A stretch of DNA of 64,000 nt from positions 45,106,001 to 45,170,000 of the forward strand of contig JASCQW010000162.1 of NCBI GenBank assembly GCA_030264375.1. The letters run 5' to 3'. A program made the position numbers and the translations under genes. Below are positions 2,352 through 64,000 of this stretch, one piece after another. The notes under the pieces were generated by a model. The model had not been told where the DNA came from and made no database searches. It saw nothing but the letters and a program-made list of their open reading frames with translations. The first letter of the stretch is position 1; every line of letters starts with the position of its first letter. The DNA is from Carcharhinus longimanus (Eukaryota).

Positions 2352-2591
<240 letters not shown>

Positions 2592-3272: not shown

Positions 3273-6200
3273 ATCCTATTGATTGAGGAATAAATATTTG
3301 TCAGGGCACAGGGAAGAAATCACATTTTCTTAAAAAAAAGCCATGAAATTTTATACATCTACTTGAGAATGTAGACAAAGCTTCCCTTTGATGTCAATCT
3401 GAAAAATGGCATCTTCTCTCCATACAGCTATCCTTCATTTTGCACACCTGATGTGTTCCAAAAAAGTACGTTAAGGGAAAACGTGAATTTCCTGCCTCAT
3501 ATAATATTTTATGTATTGACTTAATGTATTTTACAACTATGAGGTTTGTGAGATTATTATATGTTGGAACTGTAGCTTTAAATTTAAGGTAATGGAAGGA
3601 GTAATCTGTTCTGAAGTCTGCTTGACTGTAAACCTGGATAGTTTGATAATCAAAAATCAAAAGAAGGCTCAGATTGTTCCACTGAGAAGAAGGTGCAATG
3701 TAGTTACATTTGCAGGCAATAGCAACTGTCTCTGGGTTTGCAATGAGTACTTTCAATCTCCCAGAGTTTCAGAACGGTGATGAAGGTAACATTTTGTGCT
3801 ATAGGCGGCCCATTCACTTCTAAAAGGAAATGGAGTTGGGATTAAGGATAGCTAATTAGCATTTCTTAATGTGTTTCGCATTGTCATGGGGAAGAAGGCA
3901 GAGGAAGCTATTTTAGAGATCAGATTACAGGCTCCCCTACAAATCAATGAAAATTTCAGCCATCAGAAGTTCTGCATGGTCAGCAGAGGGACCACTGGGC
4001 TTTGTGAGCTGCCACAGCTGGATGTGGGAGGGAGACGGTCATTAGTCAAAGAGGTGCAACTAGTAGCCTTTTGCAGAGTCTGGGAGATTTTGTTCCAGCA
4101 TGGCTAGTGTTGAGGTGGGAAGGAGNNNNNNNNNNAATCATCAGAACAGGCTTTACTGTTGGTGAAGGATTTAAGAAACTCTGAAAACTGAGAAAGGTAC
4201 TTGGAGATGTCACTCAAAGTGGGGATGTGGGAACGCATTGGAAGTTGGGAGCAACTGTGGACCATTTGTTATGATGATCAAACACATTTCTTGACCCATG
4301 CAGAATAACCATGATAAACTGAAACCTGAGGACAGGTGGGTGGCAGCACTATTCAGGAAAGTTCCCGAAAAGCTCAGAACAGAGAATTTTCATATCGCAC
4401 AGGAGTGCCAACCTAGATTATCTGATAAAATGTTTGCAATAGCCTTCATTCCACAACCTACTAGCTCGAGTGCCATTGCTGACATTCTCTGTACTCAGTA
4501 ATTAAAGGAAAATATCAATCCCAGAATTACTGAAGTAGTCTGATGCAAAAAGCCTCTGTAAACCCAGAAGCATGTGATGTGTTAAAAGTAATTTTATATC
4601 AGCAAGCTTTAGAAAACTTGCTTTATGAAAAGATTATTTTTGTTCCCTGTATACTATACCGTCAATAAAATGTGGGTCCTTTGTGTAAACAGGGACTGAG
4701 CAGTCCAACACTAATCCCACCTGTCAATGAAAATAGTTTAACAGAGATGGTCAATTCCAGGAAGGTGTGCTTTGTAAGTCTCGCCAACTGACCTCTGCTC
4801 TTTGACCCCTGACACTAGGAACCACAGTTTTAGTGGAGTAAGGATACAAGTTAAATCTTCACAGAATTGACTTCCACAGTAGCATTCAGAACTCATTTTA
4901 CAGTCACTCAGTCTGGGCATTTCGACCTGTATACAATAACACTTCAACATTATGTATGAACAATAAAATGAACTATGATTTTATGCTGAACATCTTTCTT
5001 AGCTGATGGTAATTCTAATGAGATCTAATTTTAATTAATGCAATGAAAAATAAAGATGACATTTTGTGCCAATAGTGGAAGCACATTATTCGAAATGAAA
5101 TTTTAACGGACTCCACAGAAGATTAAATTCAAACCACAGCAATGGCTTTAACTAAGACTCCCAACCCAACAGTTTCATTTTAGCAGTTGCTGAAGGGCTG
5201 CTGTATGATTGTACCTTTTCTACAAATTCAATCTCAGTCAAACTATTTTCACAAGTGTGTACTAACTCACTTGCCCAGATTTACATGAAAGGAAGTAACA
5301 AGATCAATTGAGCAGCAGTTCTCCTGAATTAGAATTATAAACTTTTCAAGTTGCTTTATCAAAGTTCTGCCAGGTCACCAGGCTTTATGCTGTATCGGTT
5401 ACCCATTGCCAAACTATCACTGACACTGTGTAAGTGGCCCTATAATGGTGAACGTCACTGAGATGGTGCATGAAAATAACTGCATTGCAAAGAAATGGAG
5501 AAATTTGTGGCAGGAAACGTGGGGTCAGATCTTACAGTTGGTACTCCTGTCCAGTCAAGCTTTCAATACCCTTGTCCTTATCATCATCATCAAAGTATCC
5601 CAGCAAGGATTTTCCTCCCTCCTGATCCTCCTCCTCAGCATTATCATCACTGTCCTTCTCTTCTTCATCTTCTGCCTCCTGTTGCTTTGATGGACCTCAA
5701 GGCAATTAAGGGCATAAACTAAGAATATATGAGCATAACCTCCTTGGGAAAAGGAAAACAGAGAAGGGTAGGGAAGCATTTGCCTATGTGTTGTTCCATA
5801 AATTGCCATGGCTACTCTGCAAATGTTCACACACTTATCTGATACCTATGCTATATGACCACTCTCACTATGTTTCACAATGAGAGCAGAGTGCTCTTAG
5901 ATGGAGATAACTTGCACTTATACAGTGCTATTTATTACCTCAGGACATCACAAAGCCCTTTGAAGCCAATGATGTACTTCTGAAGTCTCTACTGTAATGT
6001 AAGAAAATACGGCAGACGTTTCTCACAAAGCAAGCTCCCATTAACATCCAAAGTATATATAATTAGATAAGCTATTTTAGTAATAGTATTTGAGGATATA
6101 TATTGACCAGAAAATTGCTCCCTCAATACCATGCTAAAATATCAGAAATATAATGGCTCATCTACTTTTGAGTGAAAAAACCTATGGCCAGGATGTGATG

Positions 6201-6689
6201 AGCCATTCAAATGTCTGTTGACTTTGGGCGAACCAGAAGATCTTACTGGTGGAAGAGGCCGGTGAATCCCAGCCTATAATTTATTTTTGGGATGCTCATA
6301 GATTTCACTATGGGTTGATTTCTAGTAAAGCATCTAGTTCTCAATAAATGATCAGGTGACCAAGTTGCCTGGGAGATAAATAATAGAACATCAAAGGGTC
6401 AACAAGAAGTTAACTATAGAGTTGAGTAGATTATGAGTGACTCTGGTCTGGAGCAGTATTTTTAGATCAATCTGGCTGCACAGCAAGGAACATATCTTTC
6501 CTGCAGAATTCATTTGAAATTTGGTGCATTGGCTTAAAGATCTTAAACTTCTTGTTAACTAAAGGATTTATGACAATGATTTGGATGTCTAAGAATATAC
6601 GTAATAGAACAGAGAATATAGAAGGTGGCAAGCATCTAACCCCAGGTAGAGCAGAAACGGTGATAAGTATGAGAAAGGAGGTGGTCATT

Positions 6690-9530
6690 CAGGATTGACA
6701 GTGTTGTACTAAATGTGTGCAGTATTCCGAACAAGGTAAATGAGGTTGTTGTGCACACTGAAATTGGCTGGTATGATGTTTTAAACATCACAGAGACATG
6801 GCTGCGAGGAGATTCCAAGGATATGTGTCCTATGGGAAGGACAGGCTGATGGGCAAATGGGGTGGGGTTGCATTGTTAGTAAAGAATGAAGTTAAATCAA
6901 TAGCAAGAAGCAGTATAGGATCAGAAAGCATAGAATCTCTGTGGGTAGAGTTGAGGAATTGCAAAGGTAAAAAAACCTTGATGGGAATTATGTACAGGTC
7001 CCCTAGCAGTAGTCAGGATGTGGGGCAGAAAATAAATCAGGCAACATAAAAAATGCAATATTACAATAATCATGGGGTACTTCAATATGTAGATGGACTG
7101 GGAAAATCAGGAAGGTAGTGGATCCCAAGAAAAGGAATTTGTGGAATATCTAAGACTTTTTTTGGAGCGGCTTGTGACAGAGTCTACTAGGGAACAGGCA
7201 ATTCTGGATTTGGTGATGTGTAATGAGGCAGACTTGATTAGGGAACTTAAGGTGAAAGAACCCTGAGGGATCAGTGACCACAGTACGATAGAATTTACCC
7301 TGTAGTTTGAGGGGGAGAAGCTGGAATCAGATTTAATGGATTATAATTAAATAAGGGTAACTACAAAGACATGAGGGAGGAGCTGGCCAGAGTAGATTGG
7401 AAAGGGAGCCTAGTAGGGAAGACAGCAGAACAGCAATGGCTAGAGTTTTTGAGAGTTATTTGGGAGGCATAACAGAAGTTCATCCCAAGGAGGAGAAAAC
7501 ATGCTAAAGGGGAAGACAAGGCATCCATGACTGCTGAGGGAAGTCTAGGACAGCATAAAAGCAAAAGAAAAAGCGTACATTCTAGGACAGCATAAAAGCA
7601 AAAGAAAAAGCGTACAAAGTGACAAGGATTAGTGGGAAGTGAGAGGATTGGGAAGCTTTAAAAGTGAGCAGAGAACAACTAAAAAAGCAATAAGATGGGA
7701 GAACATGAAATATGAGTATAAGCTAGCTAATAATATAAAAGAAGATAGAACTTTTTTTCAATATATGAAAGGTAAGAGATTGGGCCACTGGAAAATGAGG
7801 CTGGAGAAGTAACAATAGGAAACAAAGCAATAGCAGAGGAACTGAATAGTTACATCAGTCTTCATAGTGAAAGTCACCAGTGGGATGTCAGAGCTCCAGG
7901 ATAGTCTGGGGGGACAGGTGAGTGTAATGGCCATCACGAAGGAGAAAATCCAGGGGAATCTGAAAGGTCTGAAAATGGATAATTCACCTGGACCAGATGG
8001 ATTACACGCTAGGGTTCTAAAAGAGATAGCTGAGGAAATTGTGGAGGCATTGGTGTTGATCTTTCAGGAATTACTGGAGGCAGGGAGGGTACTAGAGGAG
8101 TAGAAAGTACCTAATGTAACATCACTGTTTAAGAAGGGTGGGGGGCAGCAGACGGGAAATTATAAGCCAGTTAGCCTGACTTTGGTCATTGGCAAGAATT
8201 TTGAATCCATTATTAAAGATGAGATTGCAGAGTACTTGGAAGTGCATGAGAAAATAAGACTGAGTCAGCATGGCTTTGTCAAGGGGAGGTCATGTCTGGC
8301 AAATCTTTGAGGAAGTAACAAGGAAGTTAGATAAAGGAAACCCAATGGACGTGATTTATTTAGATTTCCAGAAGGCCTTTGACAAGGTACCGCATAGCAG
8401 GCTGTTAAATAAGTTAAGTACCCATGACGTTAAGGGTAAGATCCTGGCATGAATAGAGGATTGGCTGACTGGCAAAAGGCAGAGAGTGGGGATAAAGGAG
8501 TCTTTTTCAGGATGGCAGCTAGTGACTAGTGGTGTGCCTCAGTGCTGGGACCACAACTTTTCACAATATACATTAACGATTTGGAGAAAGGAACTGAAGG
8601 CACTGTTGCTAAGTTNNNNNNNNNNNNNNNNNNNNNNNNNNNNNNNNNNNNNNNNNNNNNNNNNNNNNNNNNNNNNNNNNNNNNNNNNNNNNNNNNNNNN
8701 NNNNNNNNNNNNNNNNNNNNNNNNNNNNNNNNNNNNNNNNNNNNNNNNNNNNNNNNNNNNNNNNNNNNNNNNNNNNNNNNNNNNNNNNNNNNNNNNNNNN
8801 NNNNNNNNNNNNNNNNNNNNNNNNNNNNNNNNNNNNNNNNNNNNNNNNNNNNNNNNNNNNNNNNNNNNNNNNNNNNNNNNNNNNNNNNNNNNNNNNNNNN
8901 NNNNNNNNNNNNNNNNNNNNNNNNNNNNNNNNNNNNNNNNNNNNNNNNNNNNNNNNNNNNNNNNNNNNNNNNNNNNNNNNNNNNNNNNNNNNNNNNNNNN
9001 NNNNNNNNNNNNNNNNNNNNNNNNNNNNNNNNNNNNNNNNNNNNNNNNNNNNNNNNNNNNNNNNNNNNNNNNNNNNNNNNNNNNNNNNNNNNNNNNNNNN
9101 NNNNNNNNNNNNNNNNNNNNNNNNNNNNNNNNNNNNNNNNNNNNNNNNNNNNNNNNNNNNNNNNNNNNNNNNNNNNNNNNNNNNNNNNNNCTGGATAGAG
9201 TGGATGTGGAGAGGACAGTTCCACGAGTAGGAAAAACAAGAACCAGAGGGCACAACCTCAGGTTAAAGTGATAATCCTTTAAAACAAAAATAAGAAGGAA
9301 TTGCTTCAGCCAGAGAGTGGTGAATCTGTTGGACACTTTGCCATAGAAAGCTGTGAAGGTCAGTCATTGAACGTCTTTAAGACAGAGATAGATAGGTTCT
9401 TGATTAATAAGGGGATCAGGGATTATGGGGAAAAGGGAGGAGAATGGGGATGAGAAAAGTATCAGCCATGATTGAATGGCGGAGCAGACTTGATGGGCCG
9501 AGTGGCCGAATTCTGCTCCTATGTCCTATG
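6690..9530 (+). mobile_element. CR1-clade LINE (HER1-like), ORF2 disrupted
   Basis: Endonuclease fragments (GGVALLVK, ESLWVELRN, IMYRSP) and RT motifs (SPGPDGLH, DVIYLDFQKAFDKVPH, LGPQLFTIYINDL). CR1 3' tail GATGGGCCGAGTGGCCGAATTCTGCTCCTATGTCCTATG. Stops, frameshifts and an N gap at 8616-9190. Confidence 0.92.
7544..7616 (+). repeat. Exact 36-bp tandem duplication inside the CR1
   Basis: TCTAGGACAGCATAAAAGCAAAAGAAAAAGCGTACA at 7544-7579 and 7581-7616. Confidence 0.95.
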
Positions 9531-9940
9531 GGAAAGCAAAGCTGAGAAGAGAGACTGAGACGTAGATACAATTGGAGGAGATTTAAAGGGAAAACTTCAC
9601 TGGAAGTAAGAGAAGACCTAAGAAATCTCAATCCTTACTCAAATCTTTGAAGTAGTACTCAGACCAAGTGGTTAACTCTTCAAGTTTTGATAAGTGTCTT
9701 GGGTTCTGAGGGTGCAAATCAAATGGTTGTGGAAGGGAATTTGAGTAAAGTTCAGTTAGAAAATAAATAACTGTTCACTGTACTTTTAATATCTTTGAGC
9801 GGAATTTTGCCATCCTGCCTCCACAGAAATTGTAGCAGGCGGGACATGCACCATGAAGAAGGCCATTGACCTTTGAGTGTAATTTTACAGTGCATGGCCA
9901 AAAAATTCCATCCTTTTTTGTAACTGATCATTTAAAATAT

Positions 9941-10211
9941 GGCACAGTGGCACAATGGTTAGCACTGCTGCCTCACAGCGCTAGGGGCCCAGATTCAATT
10001 GCAGCTTGGGTCACTGCCTGTGCAGAATCTGTACATTCTCCCTGTGTCTCTGTGGGTTTCCTCCAGATGCTCAGGTTTCCTCCCCACAGTTTGAAAAGTG
10101 TGCTGTTAGGTGCATTGACCAAGCAGGTGCCAGAGTGTGACAACTAGGGGAATTTNNNNNNNNNNTTCATTGCAGTGTTAATGTAAGCTTTGCTTGTGAC
10201 TAATAAATAAA
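9941..10211 (+). mobile_element. HE1/V-SINE-type SINE, tail type B
   Basis: tRNA head, central domain, and tail ...TTCATTGCAGTGTTAATGTAAGC...GTGACTAATAAATAAA. Confidence 0.85.
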
Positions 10212-53494: not shown

Positions 53495-53629
53495 CCTTGT
53501 TTGCCAGAATGCCGTCTATGCTGTGTTTGGTCTTTTTATCTCCCTCTTCATATTCCTTTCTTTCACATTCCTCCTCTTCGTCTTCTTTCTTACCGAATCT
53601 ACTCCTTAGAATACGGCTTATTGAGCTCA
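53495..53629 (-). CDS. pax3: Pax3 exon 4, end of paired domain and octapeptide
   Basis: Acceptor AAAAAG|TG. Translates (V)[44 protein letters not shown], with octapeptide HSIDGILA. Donor AAGG|GTAAGA; 135 nt. Confidence 0.96.
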
Positions 53630-54254
53630 CTTTTTTGAAGGAAAATGCGTTTTTTCCCAAAAAAAATCAAATATAATATTAATTTTTAATACCAACGCAA
53701 TTTTACCTTTGTGTCACAAAACATCAAATAATGTAATATTCAGTCATTGGTTTAGAATTTCAAATAAATAATATTAGTAATAATAATATAAATAAATAAT
53801 ATTTTACACTCTCCTCGATAGCTTTTTTTCCAAAAAAAAAGAAAATAGCATAGGGAGAACATTATCTTTCATGATCAATATCTTCGGGAAAAGCACAATT
53901 AAATGCCTGCAATGAATTATTTTATCTGTGAAATATGCAGGATATCATTCCAACCTGCCAAAGTGTAAATTATTCTCGTCATGTGTTGTTTCCTGATAGT
54001 CCTAATAAATAATCATAGCATTTAACTTAAAATAGTTTTTTTTAATTGGAGGACTGAAGTCCGGAATCGATTTGAATTCATTTGTTAACACCATGAGATA
54101 TTTATGCCTTCTTTATTAGTTTGAGCAGCTGGACACATTTTACATTTACAAGCGATTCTGGGCTCAGATGAAACAAGAGTAGTTATTTTTCTATGTTAAT
54201 TAAATTGTTCCTGGATTATTTCCCACTTCGCGCAAATTCACACTTGGAACTAAC

Positions 54255-54384
54255 CTGAGGGAATGGTGTTCCGATCGCACATGCCGTCTTTCAATAATTT
54301 ATCCCGGATTTCCCAACTAAACATTCCAGGATTCTCTTTCTTGTACTCTTCGATCTTTTTTTCCACATCTGGTATTGCCATTTG
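54255..54384 (-). CDS. pax3: Pax3 exon 3, paired domain RED subdomain
   Basis: Acceptor ATAAAG|CAA. Translates [43 protein letters not shown]. Donor TCAG|GTTAGT; 130 nt. Confidence 0.95.
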
Positions 54385-55919
54385 CTTTATTAAATGTGTG
54401 TGTGTGTGGGGGGGGAGGTTGCAAGAGAGAAAATAAGAACGTTGTTTACAACCGTGTTTCATTACGACTTGCAAACGAAGCTGACCTGTTTCTTATTTGC
54501 AGTCATATTCCGATATGCAAATTTGAAATAAGTAACCATGCACCCTCAAGTTTCAATTATTCCCGACATAACAGTACTGCTCTTGCAATATCGTATACAA
54601 ATCCTGGAAATATTCGATTGCATACAACGTCATCCGAAACAAAACTAAAAGCATGATAGACTTTTCAGATTTAATATGTAACGTGTTTTTATTTGGCCAC
54701 GGTGCCCCTCTCTCAGGTACACACAACATTGTTTGCTGACCTGGACTATTTATGAAGTTGGTTTAGAGTGAACGAAAAGTCAAACTGGACAAAAAAAAAA
54801 CGGGTGCAAAGTGTAGATCCACTACTTGACCTTTATTGAAAATGCGGTGTAGCTGTGGTACAATTTCTGTGTTTAATGGTCTATATTACGATGATCGCTG
54901 GTCATTATACCCTGCGTGTTTAATTGTCTGTGACAAAACCATCCACATTACAGATTAAACTGCGTATCAAGCGCTAGCGTGCGTTTTTGGCAACGTGGAC
55001 GAGCTTTGTACAATTTTGTCCATCCTACTTAACAGTGGTGAAGCAGAGTTTTACCCTATAAGGAAATGCTGAAAGGCATTTAAATTATCCGAGATTTCTC
55101 GTGATTTTACACGTTCCAGTGTAACTTTCTCCAGCAAAATTCTAAGTTTGTGGACGCACCCAATAACATATCAAAAAAGCTTTCACTAGATGTGTACTGC
55201 ATATCAGGAAAAAGATGGAAATTAAACTGATTACAATTCAGATTTTTCATAAATCCAATTAAAATGCGTTACCAAAATGGACATTAAATTTACTGTTGTT
55301 CTATTTGCAATAAATTTAGTTTAATATATAAACATGCAGCATCCTTATAAGTTCTTCATTTTAGTTAACGAATTCCCATTGTTACGCACACCGTCAGTAT
55401 TTTTTAAAGATCATGTTATTCCCTCAAAACGCCTAACCTGTTCCCAGTTTCGGATGATCAAACTGTGATGCATCTTTCAATAAAACACGTTTGAATAAAT
55501 GGACACGGGGTCACAAAATACGGGTCTATCAAATTATCGTATTCCAGGAACTTTGAATTATATTCAAGTAGCGATAATGTAATAAGTAAAACTCAGAACT
55601 TATTTACAACACCTCAACTGTGACAAGCATTTGTGAGTATTACACTTGCATGCACAGTACAGATGGGGCATGTTTTGCAAACGCACAATTTGATTTACAG
55701 TTTTATTAAAAACATGACACTCCTCAGGTGGTTTTTAGTCGATCGAACTTGCTTGTATTAAGAGTGCCTTTGATAGGCACGCACAGATAGTAGCGCCATC
55801 CACACACTTTGTAGGTGAACCATAACAACGTCTTTCCTGGCGCTGGAACTTGTCTCAACTAAGTTCTGATACTTCCTAAAGCATTTTATCGACTGACTGG
55901 AGACTTTAGTCCGACTTAC

Positions 55920-56152
55920 CCTGGGTTTGCTGCCAGTCGCCCCCGGTCTGATGGAGCCTGTCTCCTGGTATCTGCAGAGGATTTTCGAGACACAGCCGTG
56001 GGAGACCCTCAGCTGGCGAGAGATGACACACGGTCTGATGCCGTGATGGGCCATTTCCACTATCTTGTGCCTGATGTGATTTGGCAAAGGCCGGCCATTT
56101 ATAAAAACTCCTCCGAGTTGGTTCACTCTCCCTTGACCTAGAGGCGTTGACA
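55920..56152 (-). CDS. pax3: Pax3 exon 2, paired domain PAI subdomain and linker
   Basis: Acceptor AATAG|TG. Translates (V)[77 protein letters not shown]. Donor AGG|GTAAGT; 233 nt, in frame with exon 1. Confidence 0.97.
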
Positions 56153-57025
56153 CTATTTACAGTAAAAACATCAGCATTAATAAACCGTTTTAAACGGGAC
56201 CTCGCAGATAAGAGAGGAAATCGAAAGACATCACACCGATGCTTACGAGCACATCCGTCAACAAGAGGTGTTTATATATTGTTACACAATTCACTTGCAG
56301 GAAACATGCTCAAAACAGACAGATCCTTACTCCTATCTGTCACTTGACAATATTTGAAATGTGACGATAAAGTTTGGACTTGATAGTTCGGAGATGTTAA
56401 TGCATATCCTTGGAATGATTGCCGTTCAAGCTCTGTCATCACAATACTTAAATATATCTTTGGCTCGCCCCCTTCACAAACATTTTGTATGAGAAGAAAA
56501 TCCCCCAGATGCCTTCAAACATGCTTTTAAAACAGCAATTCACTCACCGGGCGTAGCCCGGTATTTACAATGAACTGTCTAACTCAGCAAGCGGGCGCAC
56601 CAGCGTTCAGCATGTGGGCAATGAATAACACTTTAAAACAACAAGCTAAAGAGATATTTGAAACAACAAAGGAGTTTTGTTTCTGATTGATTTCACCTCA
56701 AACTTCGAAGATGCACCTATTGCGCCAATAAATATTGAAACGGGAATAAAATCTACTCACTGCATATATTGAACATGATACTTGGAGAATGTACGTTAAA
56801 GAAACTTTTTGTTTTAAATGCCGTCCGCGGGGGGAGAAAAGACCAATGCGGTTACACAATTAAAAGAAAACATTACTGAGAGTCCGAAAACTCATAATGT
56901 CTTGCCGTTGGCGTCGCACAGAAAAGTTAGGATTCTGTGTGTGTGTGCGCCTCTCACCCCCGTCCCGTCCTTTCCCTCCTCCCTAAAGTACTGGACTAGA
57001 AAACTAAAAGTCAGCCAAAGCTCAC

Positions 57026-57113
57026 CTTCCAGTGGGAACCCGCTGCTCCGAGGATAGCTCTGTCCCGGGGCTGGACGCATCATTCTTGGGACCGGTCCAG
57101 CCAACGTGCTCAT
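57026..57113 (-). CDS. pax3: Pax3 coding exon 1 ([29 protein letters not shown] + 1 nt)
   Basis: ATG at 57113-57111. Peptide matches the Pax3 N-terminus (human [28 protein letters not shown]). Donor GAAG|GTGAG at 57025; 88 nt, phase 1. Confidence 0.96.
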
Positions 57114-61410: not shown

Positions 61411-62364
61411 CATCATTGTTTATTCAGACGATGCACAATCCTTTCTTCCAAGATTTCTTTCCAAGGTATTCTGCAACTATGATCCCCATTCCTCAAGTCC
61501 CTTTCCCAAAAGATCAATCAAGTGAACATCAAGTTTAATGTTCAAGGAATTGATGCAGACAAAGCATTAAGAATATCAATATTTTACAAAAGAATGTACA
61601 TCAATGGTTTGCTTAAATTGTATTTAAATATTGTAGAGCTAAGCTTTAAATTCTGAACCTGGGCTTAAACTAACTCCAGCTTTTGGCAGTGTGAGAATCT
61701 CTGGAGGACATAGTTTGAATTGCTGGTGGTGAAATTCTATGCATACATGGAGAAATGAATGTTTAAACCCGTTCTGCAGCAATAATTACCACTGGATTCA
61801 AGAAGCTGGCCAACTACTGGATTCAATAATGTCACATATCACATTGCATCATTGTCCAAATGGTTTACCCAAGCATTAGAAATACATTTTTTCATGGTCT
61901 ATTACTGAACACACAGCAAATTCGAATCCTGGTTGCCATTTATGTGGATGCAAAACAATCAATGAGTTTGCAAAGAATTATATTGTCCAAAATTATTAAT
62001 TTATTAATAAAATTATTGATTATTAATTTATTAATAATTAATTATTTTAGCACTTAGAACTGTAAATGTATTTGTTTCCATTCTGCCATCAGAATGTTTC
62101 TAATATAAGGAAAAACAAATATTATTATTATACTGCAAAATAAAATGAAGCAAATAACTCAACTGACAGCAGAACAATTGAGAAATAGTGACCACAACAT
62201 CACTACACTCAGGGTGAAAACAAAAAAGGATAATTAAGAGTGAGAAATAAGGGTACTGGACCTTTGGAGAAAGAATCAATGAGGTAAGGGTGAGGTCCAA
62301 ATTAACTGAACAGGTGGATTGGTAAATACAACAACTGTCATCAGTAAAGTTCTTCACATATAAA

Positions 62365-62657
62365 AAGTTTTTATTTATTACTCTCACAAATAGGCTTATG
62401 TTATCATTGCAATGAAGTTACTGTGAGAATCCCCTAGTTGCCACGCTCCAGCACCTATTCAGATACACTGAGGGAGAATTTATCATGGCCAATGCACCTA
62501 ACTAGCACTTCCTTCAGACAGTGGGAGGAAACAGGAGCACCTGGAGAAAACTGACACATACATGGGGGAGAATGCACAGACAGTGACCGAAGCTGGGAAT
62601 CAAACCAAAGTCCCTGATGCTGTGAGGCAACAGTGCTAACCATTGTGCCACCGTGCC
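62365..62657 (-). mobile_element. Full-length SINE, tail type B
   Basis: Family match from head to tail. Confidence 0.85.
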
Positions 62658-63049
62658 ATCTGTAGGTGATATAAAATAAGAGTATGGCATATATTGACAA
62701 GGTGAAATAGGGCATATCAAATTATAGTATATTAAAGTTAAACAATGAAATTACAAATTAACAGCTAAAATGAGGCATAAAACTAATGTTCATATTATCA
62801 AAGGAAATTGTGAAGACTATAAAGGACCAATTGGTAAAATTAAAGGAAATAATAAGGATATTTTATTGTTTAAATAAAAGATTGATTCCAAAGGAGGCAG
62901 GATTTAGGGATGAACAGAAAATGTAATTGTGGAGGATGAAAATATTACATAAATGTGTGGAAATGCTAAGTAAATGTGAGTGAGTTTTGCAAATGATAAC
63001 TGTTAGTGTATTATAGAATGAAGTGGAACACCACTGTGGGAAAGGAAAT

Positions 63050-64000
63050 AAAAGTGTGAGCAGAACTCAAAATGGTTACAGCACTGGTCCCTAATGATAT
63101 GGATAGTGCTTTCAAGGAGGTCTGAGAGAGTTTAGCTGGATTCTGACCACAATTTTTCAATCATCCTTAGCTATGTAAATTATGAAGGGTAATTATAGAA
63201 CAATTTTGGTGAGCCATTTATGGGCAAACTCTTTGAATCTAAAATGCGATACCAAAAGACATCTAGAGAATTATGGGTTATCAAGGACAGCCAACAGAAA
63301 AGTCACATTTAACAAATTTATTTTATTTAACTGACTGCACAGACAGAGGAAATGTGGCACAGTTTAGACGTATTTTCTGAAAAAAATTGATAGCGTGTCT
63401 CAAAGGAATCTTATCAGAAAAATTCAGGTGAATGATATAAAAGATGAATAGCCTAGAAAGAAATGTTGTTGATGGACAGGAGACAAGGAGTTAGGATAAA
63501 TAGATATTGCTTGTATTCAAAAAAGACTGGAAGATGTGTACCCCAAAGATTCTGTGCTCTGTCCAATTTCATCTTGTTTCATTTAGATCATTTGGATAAA
63601 AGCGTGGGCAGCATTCTTTGCTGATGACACCAAACTAGAGGTTTGAGGGGCAGGTGGGACACAGTGGGAAGGGCTGATATAAGCTTCAAAAAGGAATAGG
63701 CAGGTTAGCAGAATGGGCAGAGAGGTGACAATTGCAAATAATTGTGGAGGAGTGTCCAATTATTTATTCTGGGATGGACAAAAGGGGATGGAAGTATGCA
63801 TATGAAGGAGACGCTGAAGATAAAGATATAATGCAATAAAACGATAACAAAAGACCAATGTATTTTATAAGTAAGGAAAGCGCGCAAGAATAAAGAAGTA
63901 ATTGCAAGTTTATGGTTAGAGCAAGATAGAGTGCTTTGTGTAGTTTTGAGCACTCCATTATTGAAAGGAGATGAAAGATTATTGAGACAGTATGACATAG
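63050..64000 (+). mobile_element. Highly degenerate CR1-type LINE RT fragment
   Basis: TTTGCTGATGACACCAAACTA (FADDTKL) near 63618, with other decayed RT motifs. Confidence 0.65.

Follow-up and report, generated by a model that had tools for sequence, protein, structure and literature searches.

Textbooks treat the paired-domain linker as invariant, and in PAX6 one change there is enough to cause human eye disease. The Pax3 gene of the shark Carcharhinus longimanus appears to break this rule, with one residue missing and another replaced, which raises the question of whether the change is real, how widely it is shared and what it would do to DNA recognition. We examined a window of 64,000 nucleotides from this species (contig JASCQW010000162.1, positions 45,106,001 to 45,170,000 of the forward strand); positions given below without a contig are those of the window.

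The Pax3 gene of the window and its linker

On the minus strand, positions 55949-55920 read AGA CCG GGG GCG ACT GGC AGC AAA CCC AGG, followed by a GTAAGT donor. These are the last codons of Pax3 exon 2 (55920..56152, minus strand; 233 nt, flanked by AG and GT), which encodes the PAI subdomain and the first part of the linker. Linker residues were numbered from alignments to solved domains as Ile68-Gly69-Gly70-Ser71-Lys72-Pro73-Arg74. The sequence read and the structure alignment both place the Thr-Gly codons ACT GGC (55932..55937, minus strand) where Ile68-Gly69-Gly70 is expected, a typical Pax feature that is missing here and in a few other family members. The four solved paired domains that HMMER matched (1pdn, 1k78, 2k27 and 6pax) all carry Ile-Gly-Gly, and each alignment has a one-residue gap at the window linker; the lost glycine may be Gly69 or Gly70. 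The Ser-Lys-Pro-Arg motif that follows (55920..55931, minus strand) keeps its sequence but lies one residue nearer to the unchanged N-terminal PAI subdomain, at a distance of 5 rather than 6, and chimpanzee PAX3 (P0112) has exactly one residue more than the window in this segment of exon 2. Both the short linker and the 233-nt exon with its frame kept had been proposed in a sequence-only reading of the window, and the strand reading, the solved-domain alignments and the open frame described below bear them out. That reading also put the human exon at 236 nt, which fits the extra residue of chimpanzee PAX3. Because no single three-base deletion yields ACT GGC from Ile-Gly-Gly codons, the change would, by our own reasoning, have required no fewer than two steps, a substitution and a deletion, unless one complex event produced both. 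No tandem repeat was found at the deletion site, and a search for alternative in-frame splice sites, donor or acceptor, by which the residue could be regained found none.

To judge by its sequence, the gene is an intact Pax3 ortholog. Five coding exons (88, 233, 130, 135 and 200 nt) lie in the window, with canonical splice sites and 262 residues free of stops. The coding part of exon 1 (57026..57113, minus strand) runs from the ATG to a phase-1 donor, and its N-terminus matches shark Pax3 records. Within intron 1 lies the 3′ end of an alternative upstream exon (56761..56776, minus strand), with an ATG at 56776 in frame with exon 2 and a GTGAGT donor at 56760; it is joined to exon 2 in a loose end of a spliced contig of run X19 and would give Pax3 a short, different N-terminus. 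The skate record P0135 begins with a similar peptide, suggesting that this exon is conserved between sharks and skates. Exon 3 (54255..54384, minus strand; 130 nt) encodes the end of the linker (Gln-Met-Ala-Ile-Pro) and RED helices 4-5, and exon 4 (53495..53629, minus strand; 135 nt) encodes RED helix 6 and the octapeptide. The exon 4 acceptor (53602-53661) is preceded by six A's and not by a pyrimidine tract (TTCAAAAAAG/TGAG), and exon 3 is joined to the start of exon 4 in loose ends of three runs. Exon 5 (2373..2572, minus strand; 200 nt) follows an intron of 50,922 nt and encodes the first part of the homeodomain, which is split between this exon and the next, so that the Pax3/7 set of paired domain, octapeptide and complete homeodomain is present. 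This intron 4 (2573-53494; 50.9 kb) makes up most of the window, which also has purine-skewed stretches at 6001-10000 and 62001-64000. Beyond the left edge of the window there are three further Pax3 coding exons, which match a shark record at 93-97%.

The protein of exons 1-5 matches the NCBI Mustelus Pax3 record exactly and shares 95-98% identity with 10 of 11 other elasmobranch records tested, the eleventh being an alternative isoform from Stegostoma (91.5%). In a midpoint-rooted tree of 28 rows, the window falls inside the elasmobranch Pax3 group (support 100/98), and Pax3 and Pax7 are split with support 100/100. The PF00292 domain is full length in P0137, a record identical to window exons 1-5 across 262 residues (model positions 1-125; score 234.9 bits, cutoff 22). 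A search of the genome turned up a single Pax3 locus, and a Pax7 locus on a different contig.

The short linker is confirmed not to be an assembly error. Eight of 21 listed runs, from seven studies, were compared with the window (five studies if X1, flagged as a possible source, and X6, identical to the window throughout, are both set aside). The linker is covered in all eight, with no gap listed in exon 2. Runs X4 and X5 carry a silent change at 55938, in the Ala codon beside the deletion, and all nine distinct exonic differences listed among the runs are likewise silent, a count that omits differences near contig ends. In X17 and X19, a single contig continues from exon 2 directly into exon 3 (at 54384), with 0 gaps; on these contiguous record coordinates, the 233-nt exon is spliced to the Gln codon. 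The exon junction in X15 was not counted as bridging, having 18 letters on one side against a threshold of 31. Spliced or exon-only contigs, presumably RNA, came from three runs of other organisms, and none is listed for the window's own organism. The runs, spliced contigs among them, keep the short linker and not GAIGGSKP. Although the window holds 1,527 N bases in 11 gaps, and the same assembly carries an unverified Gly-to-Cys change near the linker of its Pax7, the chance of an assembly error, a rare allele or a pseudogene is practically negligible given the agreement of these runs with 26 database records from 15 named species (see below), the intact frame with canonical splice sites and the single Pax3 locus.

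Shark and ray Pax3 among paired-domain proteins

An in-frame protein search returned three clusters at 100% identity, all of them elasmobranch Pax3, of whose 99 members 26 were read. Every one of these 26 records has the short linker. They represent eight sharks (two Scyliorhinus, Mustelus, Stegostoma, Chiloscyllium, Hemiscyllium, Rhincodon and Heptranchias) and seven batoids (Amblyraja, Leucoraja, Hemitrygon, Hypanus, Mobula, Narcine and Pristis). The only departure within the new linker, among 25 records, is a Thr in place of the Ala after Met in Narcine (P0141). By contrast, the canonical linker is found in Pax3 of lungfish, coelacanth, bichir, sturgeon, gar, bowfin, teleosts and tetrapods, and in shark Pax7. 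Elsewhere in the C. longimanus genome, IGGSKP is present in seven other paired-domain linkers (L005, L006, L007, L010, L013, L014 and L015), a count that does not include locus L011 (stretch L016). Pax7 of this genome (L005) and of other sharks resembles shark Pax3 in its exon boundaries, in Arg74 and in the Ala after the Gln position, and differs from it in retaining the canonical Ile-Gly-Gly linker. At the end of helix 3 in exon 2 of the same Pax7 (L005; about G000:C156:17498580), we observed ETCSIRP, compared with ETGSIRP in three shark Pax7 records; the site corresponds to PAX6 Gly64, a disease position, and the change could be an error or a private allele.

Across 270 linker motifs in 268 proteins, 27 are short (the 26 records and the window) and 243 are not, and no short linker was found in 64 records reread in a second pass. 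The best 150 representatives at 50% identity yielded 150 linkers from the 147 that could be read; of the three unread by the pattern, P0321 turned out to be canonical when read again. The distance from Pro65 to Ser71 in these 150 linkers is 6 in 139, 7 in one and unread in 10, and the shark value of 5 is seen in none, while residue 68 is Ile in 140. The near-invariance of the linker, as originally claimed, therefore stands, with the qualification that a few proteins have rewritten it. Five representatives (P0352, P0354, P0364, P0370 and P0374) carry TSGSPKPR with total length unchanged. Like shark Pax3, they have replaced Ile68-Gly69 and have a PAI-to-RED distance of 30, but theirs is another sequence solution, with no deletion ahead of Lys-Pro. 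The linkers of P0367 and P0351 are also rewritten, and among these seven proteins one is three residues shorter and one has an extra residue before SKP. A generally divergent teleost copy, Pax7 of the killifish Austrofundulus limnaeus (P0056), has Thr68 and keeps both glycines.

Taken with the canonical linkers of the seven paralogs, the short linker in all 26 records and all eight runs argues that the change is elasmobranch-wide among the sharks and rays sampled. The earlier proposal of a lineage-specific change was hence right that it is real and confined to one lineage, although that lineage comprises all the sampled sharks and rays and not a single species. In the simplest reading, the change would have arisen once, before sharks and rays diverged, on the stem lineage of elasmobranchs (or of chondrichthyans). 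That divergence dates back more than 250 million years. No separate Pax3 cluster from the chimaera Callorhinchus was found among the top 120 matches; supplements to PMC3759438 list PAX3 in the elephant shark but give no sequence of its linker.

Exon 3 acceptor and domain length

The sequence-only reading described the deletion and the Ile-to-Thr change correctly but overlooked what follows them at the start of exon 3, where a Gln is fixed and Met and Ile replace the Val and Thr after it. The Arg74 and the Ala after Met, which are common to Pax7, are likely ancestral. In bony vertebrates, passages of PMC5852603 and PMC1657060 describe a tandem acceptor at this site that yields forms with and without the Gln (hereafter Q-plus and Q-minus), and bony-vertebrate Pax3 records occur in both, for example as two isoforms each in lungfish and bichir. 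The NAGNAG acceptor typical of vertebrate Pax3/7 is kept in Pax7 of the shark genome (L005), as AAG/CAG/GTA, but is absent from Pax3 of the window, where exon 3 begins AAG/CAA ATG. Here the acceptor (54382..54387, minus strand) has a single AG, the only one within 12 nt, before a CAA codon for Gln. With AAG/CAA in place of AAG/CAG, the Q-minus splice form is not possible, so on the reading of its acceptor this genome cannot make Q-minus Pax3. Five DNA runs cover the acceptor with no difference listed, and a loose end of X15 reads CAA; run contigs drop rare forms, so that the absence of a minor isoform is not readable from them. This acceptor was read on DNA in this genome and the compared runs, the named species being represented by protein records, and the Gln is present in all 25 elasmobranch Pax3 records that include exon 3.

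Shark Pax3 thus shares with the Q-plus and Q-minus forms of vertebrate PAX3 its exon structure, PAI positions 1-67, octapeptide and homeodomain, and falls inside the Pax3 clade. Unlike them, it has Thr-Gly for Ile68-Gly69-Gly70, carries, after the Gln, Met where they have Val and Ile where they have Thr, and exists in one linker form instead of two (as read from the acceptor of this genome), combining the length of Q-minus with the Gln of Q-plus. From the end of helix 3 to FSWEI there are 35 residues in sharks and in Q-minus proteins, and 36 in Q-plus. Similarly, the 125 positions of PF00292 are filled by 125 shark residues, compared with 126 in the frog Q-plus protein. The distance from Pro65 to Phe in the 150 linkers is 30 in 112, 31 in 20, 38 in one and unread in 17, and the shark value is 30. 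With one residue lost before SKP and one fixed after it, the domain is left at the family-typical 125 residues. That the five TSGSPKPR representatives rewrote the linker and kept the distance of 30 fits the idea of length as a constraint.

A comparison of the domain over 126 columns and 29 rows (13 elasmobranch Pax3, 16 outgroup) left out two of 31 sequences, hyena P0185 and turtle P0167, that have no complete domain match. Positions 1-67 are identical in all 29 rows, and elasmobranch-only residues occur at six positions (68, 69, 76, 78, 109 and 115 in Q-plus numbering). Four of the six are in the linker, a clustering with a hypergeometric P of 0.005, or 0.024 if the substitution at 68 and the deletion at 69 are one event; both values are post hoc, the interval having been picked after the data were seen. 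Teleost Pax3 copies also vary at the end of the linker.

The best sequence and fold matches to shark Pax3 are Prd (1PDN), PAX6 (6PAX) and PAX5 (1K78), all with Ile-Gly-Gly and no Gln; in the shark protein, SKP comes one residue earlier. Overall domain length is nevertheless the same as in 1pdn (123 alignment columns on a 123-residue chain). AlphaFold models without DNA have six helices, of PAI and RED, in both a catshark record and a chimpanzee Q-plus control, and the matches to 1pdn, 1k78 and 6pax are to the paired-domain fold; their rmsd of 9-11 Å reflects the free orientation of the subdomains when DNA is absent. The linker has a pLDDT below 50 in both models (segments 102-109 and 102-107, respectively). 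Because confidence there is low in both, the models make no choice of linker register and do not tell the shark from the control.

Likely effect on DNA recognition

According to accounts in PMC7046147, PMC2649307 and PMC2995082, the paired-domain linker occupies the minor groove, where it reads the bases at the centre of the site, with Ser71 contacting DNA directly. It is likely that shark Pax3 keeps its core DNA recognition and is altered in its minor-groove reading of the middle of the site. More specifically, we lean, at slightly better than an even chance, towards an account in which the linker deletion and the loss of the Q-minus form offset each other, with a modest shift in DNA recognition. 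The two would be offsetting, in whichever order they occurred, because a Q-minus form would now fall one residue below the common PAI-to-RED spacing. PAI would dock as usual, and since it is unchanged, the core half-site is likely read as before, while RED would sit at a distance like that of Q-minus, Prd or Pax6. The minor-groove contacts of Ser-Lys-Pro would be pulled about one residue toward PAI or re-registered. Either the SKP contacts are kept, so that the chain leading to them from helix 3 is stretched tight, or the path of the chain is that of Q-minus and SKP moves by one position. The expected outcome would be a modest change that depends on the site, either in affinity or in which central bases are preferred. 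Mouse Pax3 Q-minus, in the wording of a review (PMC5852603), seems stronger than Q-plus on sites that need both subdomains. Hence, shark Pax3 may resemble a constitutive Q-minus protein with altered central contacts.

Measurements on PAX6, whose Gly72 and Gly73 are the equivalents of paired-domain Gly69 and Gly70, give some idea of the sizes of effect. As reported in PMC7046147, the dissociation constant is 0.41 uM for the wild type, 0.58 for Gly72Cys and 1.2 for Gly72Ser (a 2.8-fold drop in affinity), Gly73Asp loses binding to one site and keeps two others, and single linker mutants mostly shift affinity by less than threefold on the crystal-structure site. PAX6 Val78Ala, at the position that is Met in sharks, is described in PMC7056646 as likely causative in one family. 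A change in DNA recognition, as put forward in the sequence-only reading, is plausible.

A tentative alternative, which we consider rather unlikely, is that the deletion was fixed as a nearly neutral change, tolerated because PAI and the homeodomain do most of the DNA binding of Pax3, so that recognition is practically unchanged. The change from CAG to CAA is silent and could have drifted independently of the deletion, a counterpoint to any offsetting of the two, and the later constancy of the linker would simply reflect slow evolution of the gene. Indeed, most elasmobranch Pax3 records are 95-100% identical to the window protein, so that no variation in the linker would be expected within the group anyway. 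PAI is identical. According to a review, PAX3 can bind without RED (PMC13024339), which makes an effect of spacing less likely, and PAX6 Gly72Cys, Ser74Gly and Pro76Arg shift affinity by just 1.4- to 1.8-fold (PMC7046147). For Pax7, moreover, PMC10415112 reports a marginal effect of the Gln on transcriptomes and similar binding of all isoforms in vitro. However, a deletion seen in none of the 243 other motifs and none of the 150 representative linkers is not one that is commonly tolerated, even mild PAX6 linker mutants cause eye disease (PMC7046147 and others), and four of the six derived positions are clustered in the linker.

A stronger version of the offsetting account is also conceivable, in which the deletion and a compensating loss of Q-minus shifted SKP in the minor groove by one residue and hard-wired the linker geometry, giving Pax3 of sharks and rays a DNA motif distinct from those of Pax7 and of every bony-vertebrate Pax3, with matching changes in neural-crest and muscle-precursor enhancers. 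We think this distinctly unlikely, but it would show, if true, that specificity has changed naturally in a transcription-factor domain taken as frozen.

Less probable still is that the linker has lost its grip, with Thr68 and the missing Gly weakening minor-groove binding and uncoupling RED, so that Pax3 would act through PAI and the homeodomain only and Pax7, with its canonical linker, would retain the targets that need the whole paired domain. The prevalence of Ile68 (140 of the 150 representative linkers), the canonical linker and tandem acceptor of shark Pax7, and two more elasmobranch-only changes in RED, at positions 109 and 115, could be read in this way. Yet the RED changes are conservative and all the listed exonic differences are silent. 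Furthermore, relaxed constraint would hardly have preserved SKPR, the RED recognition helix and a total length equal to the consensus.

Short-linker sequences are already in public annotations, where they are named Pax3 or Pax3b. Searches by peptide string and by topic, which reached text outside figure alignments and outside most subscription journals, found no published description of the change in shark Pax3. The linker of sharks and rays is a natural test of what sets DNA recognition by Pax proteins: the sequence of the linker, its length or the switch between Q-plus and Q-minus. It also provides a rare-indel marker for elasmobranchs. For comparisons of muscle and neural-crest development that take shark or skate Pax3 as ancestral, it means that the DNA-binding domain of this protein represents a derived state.
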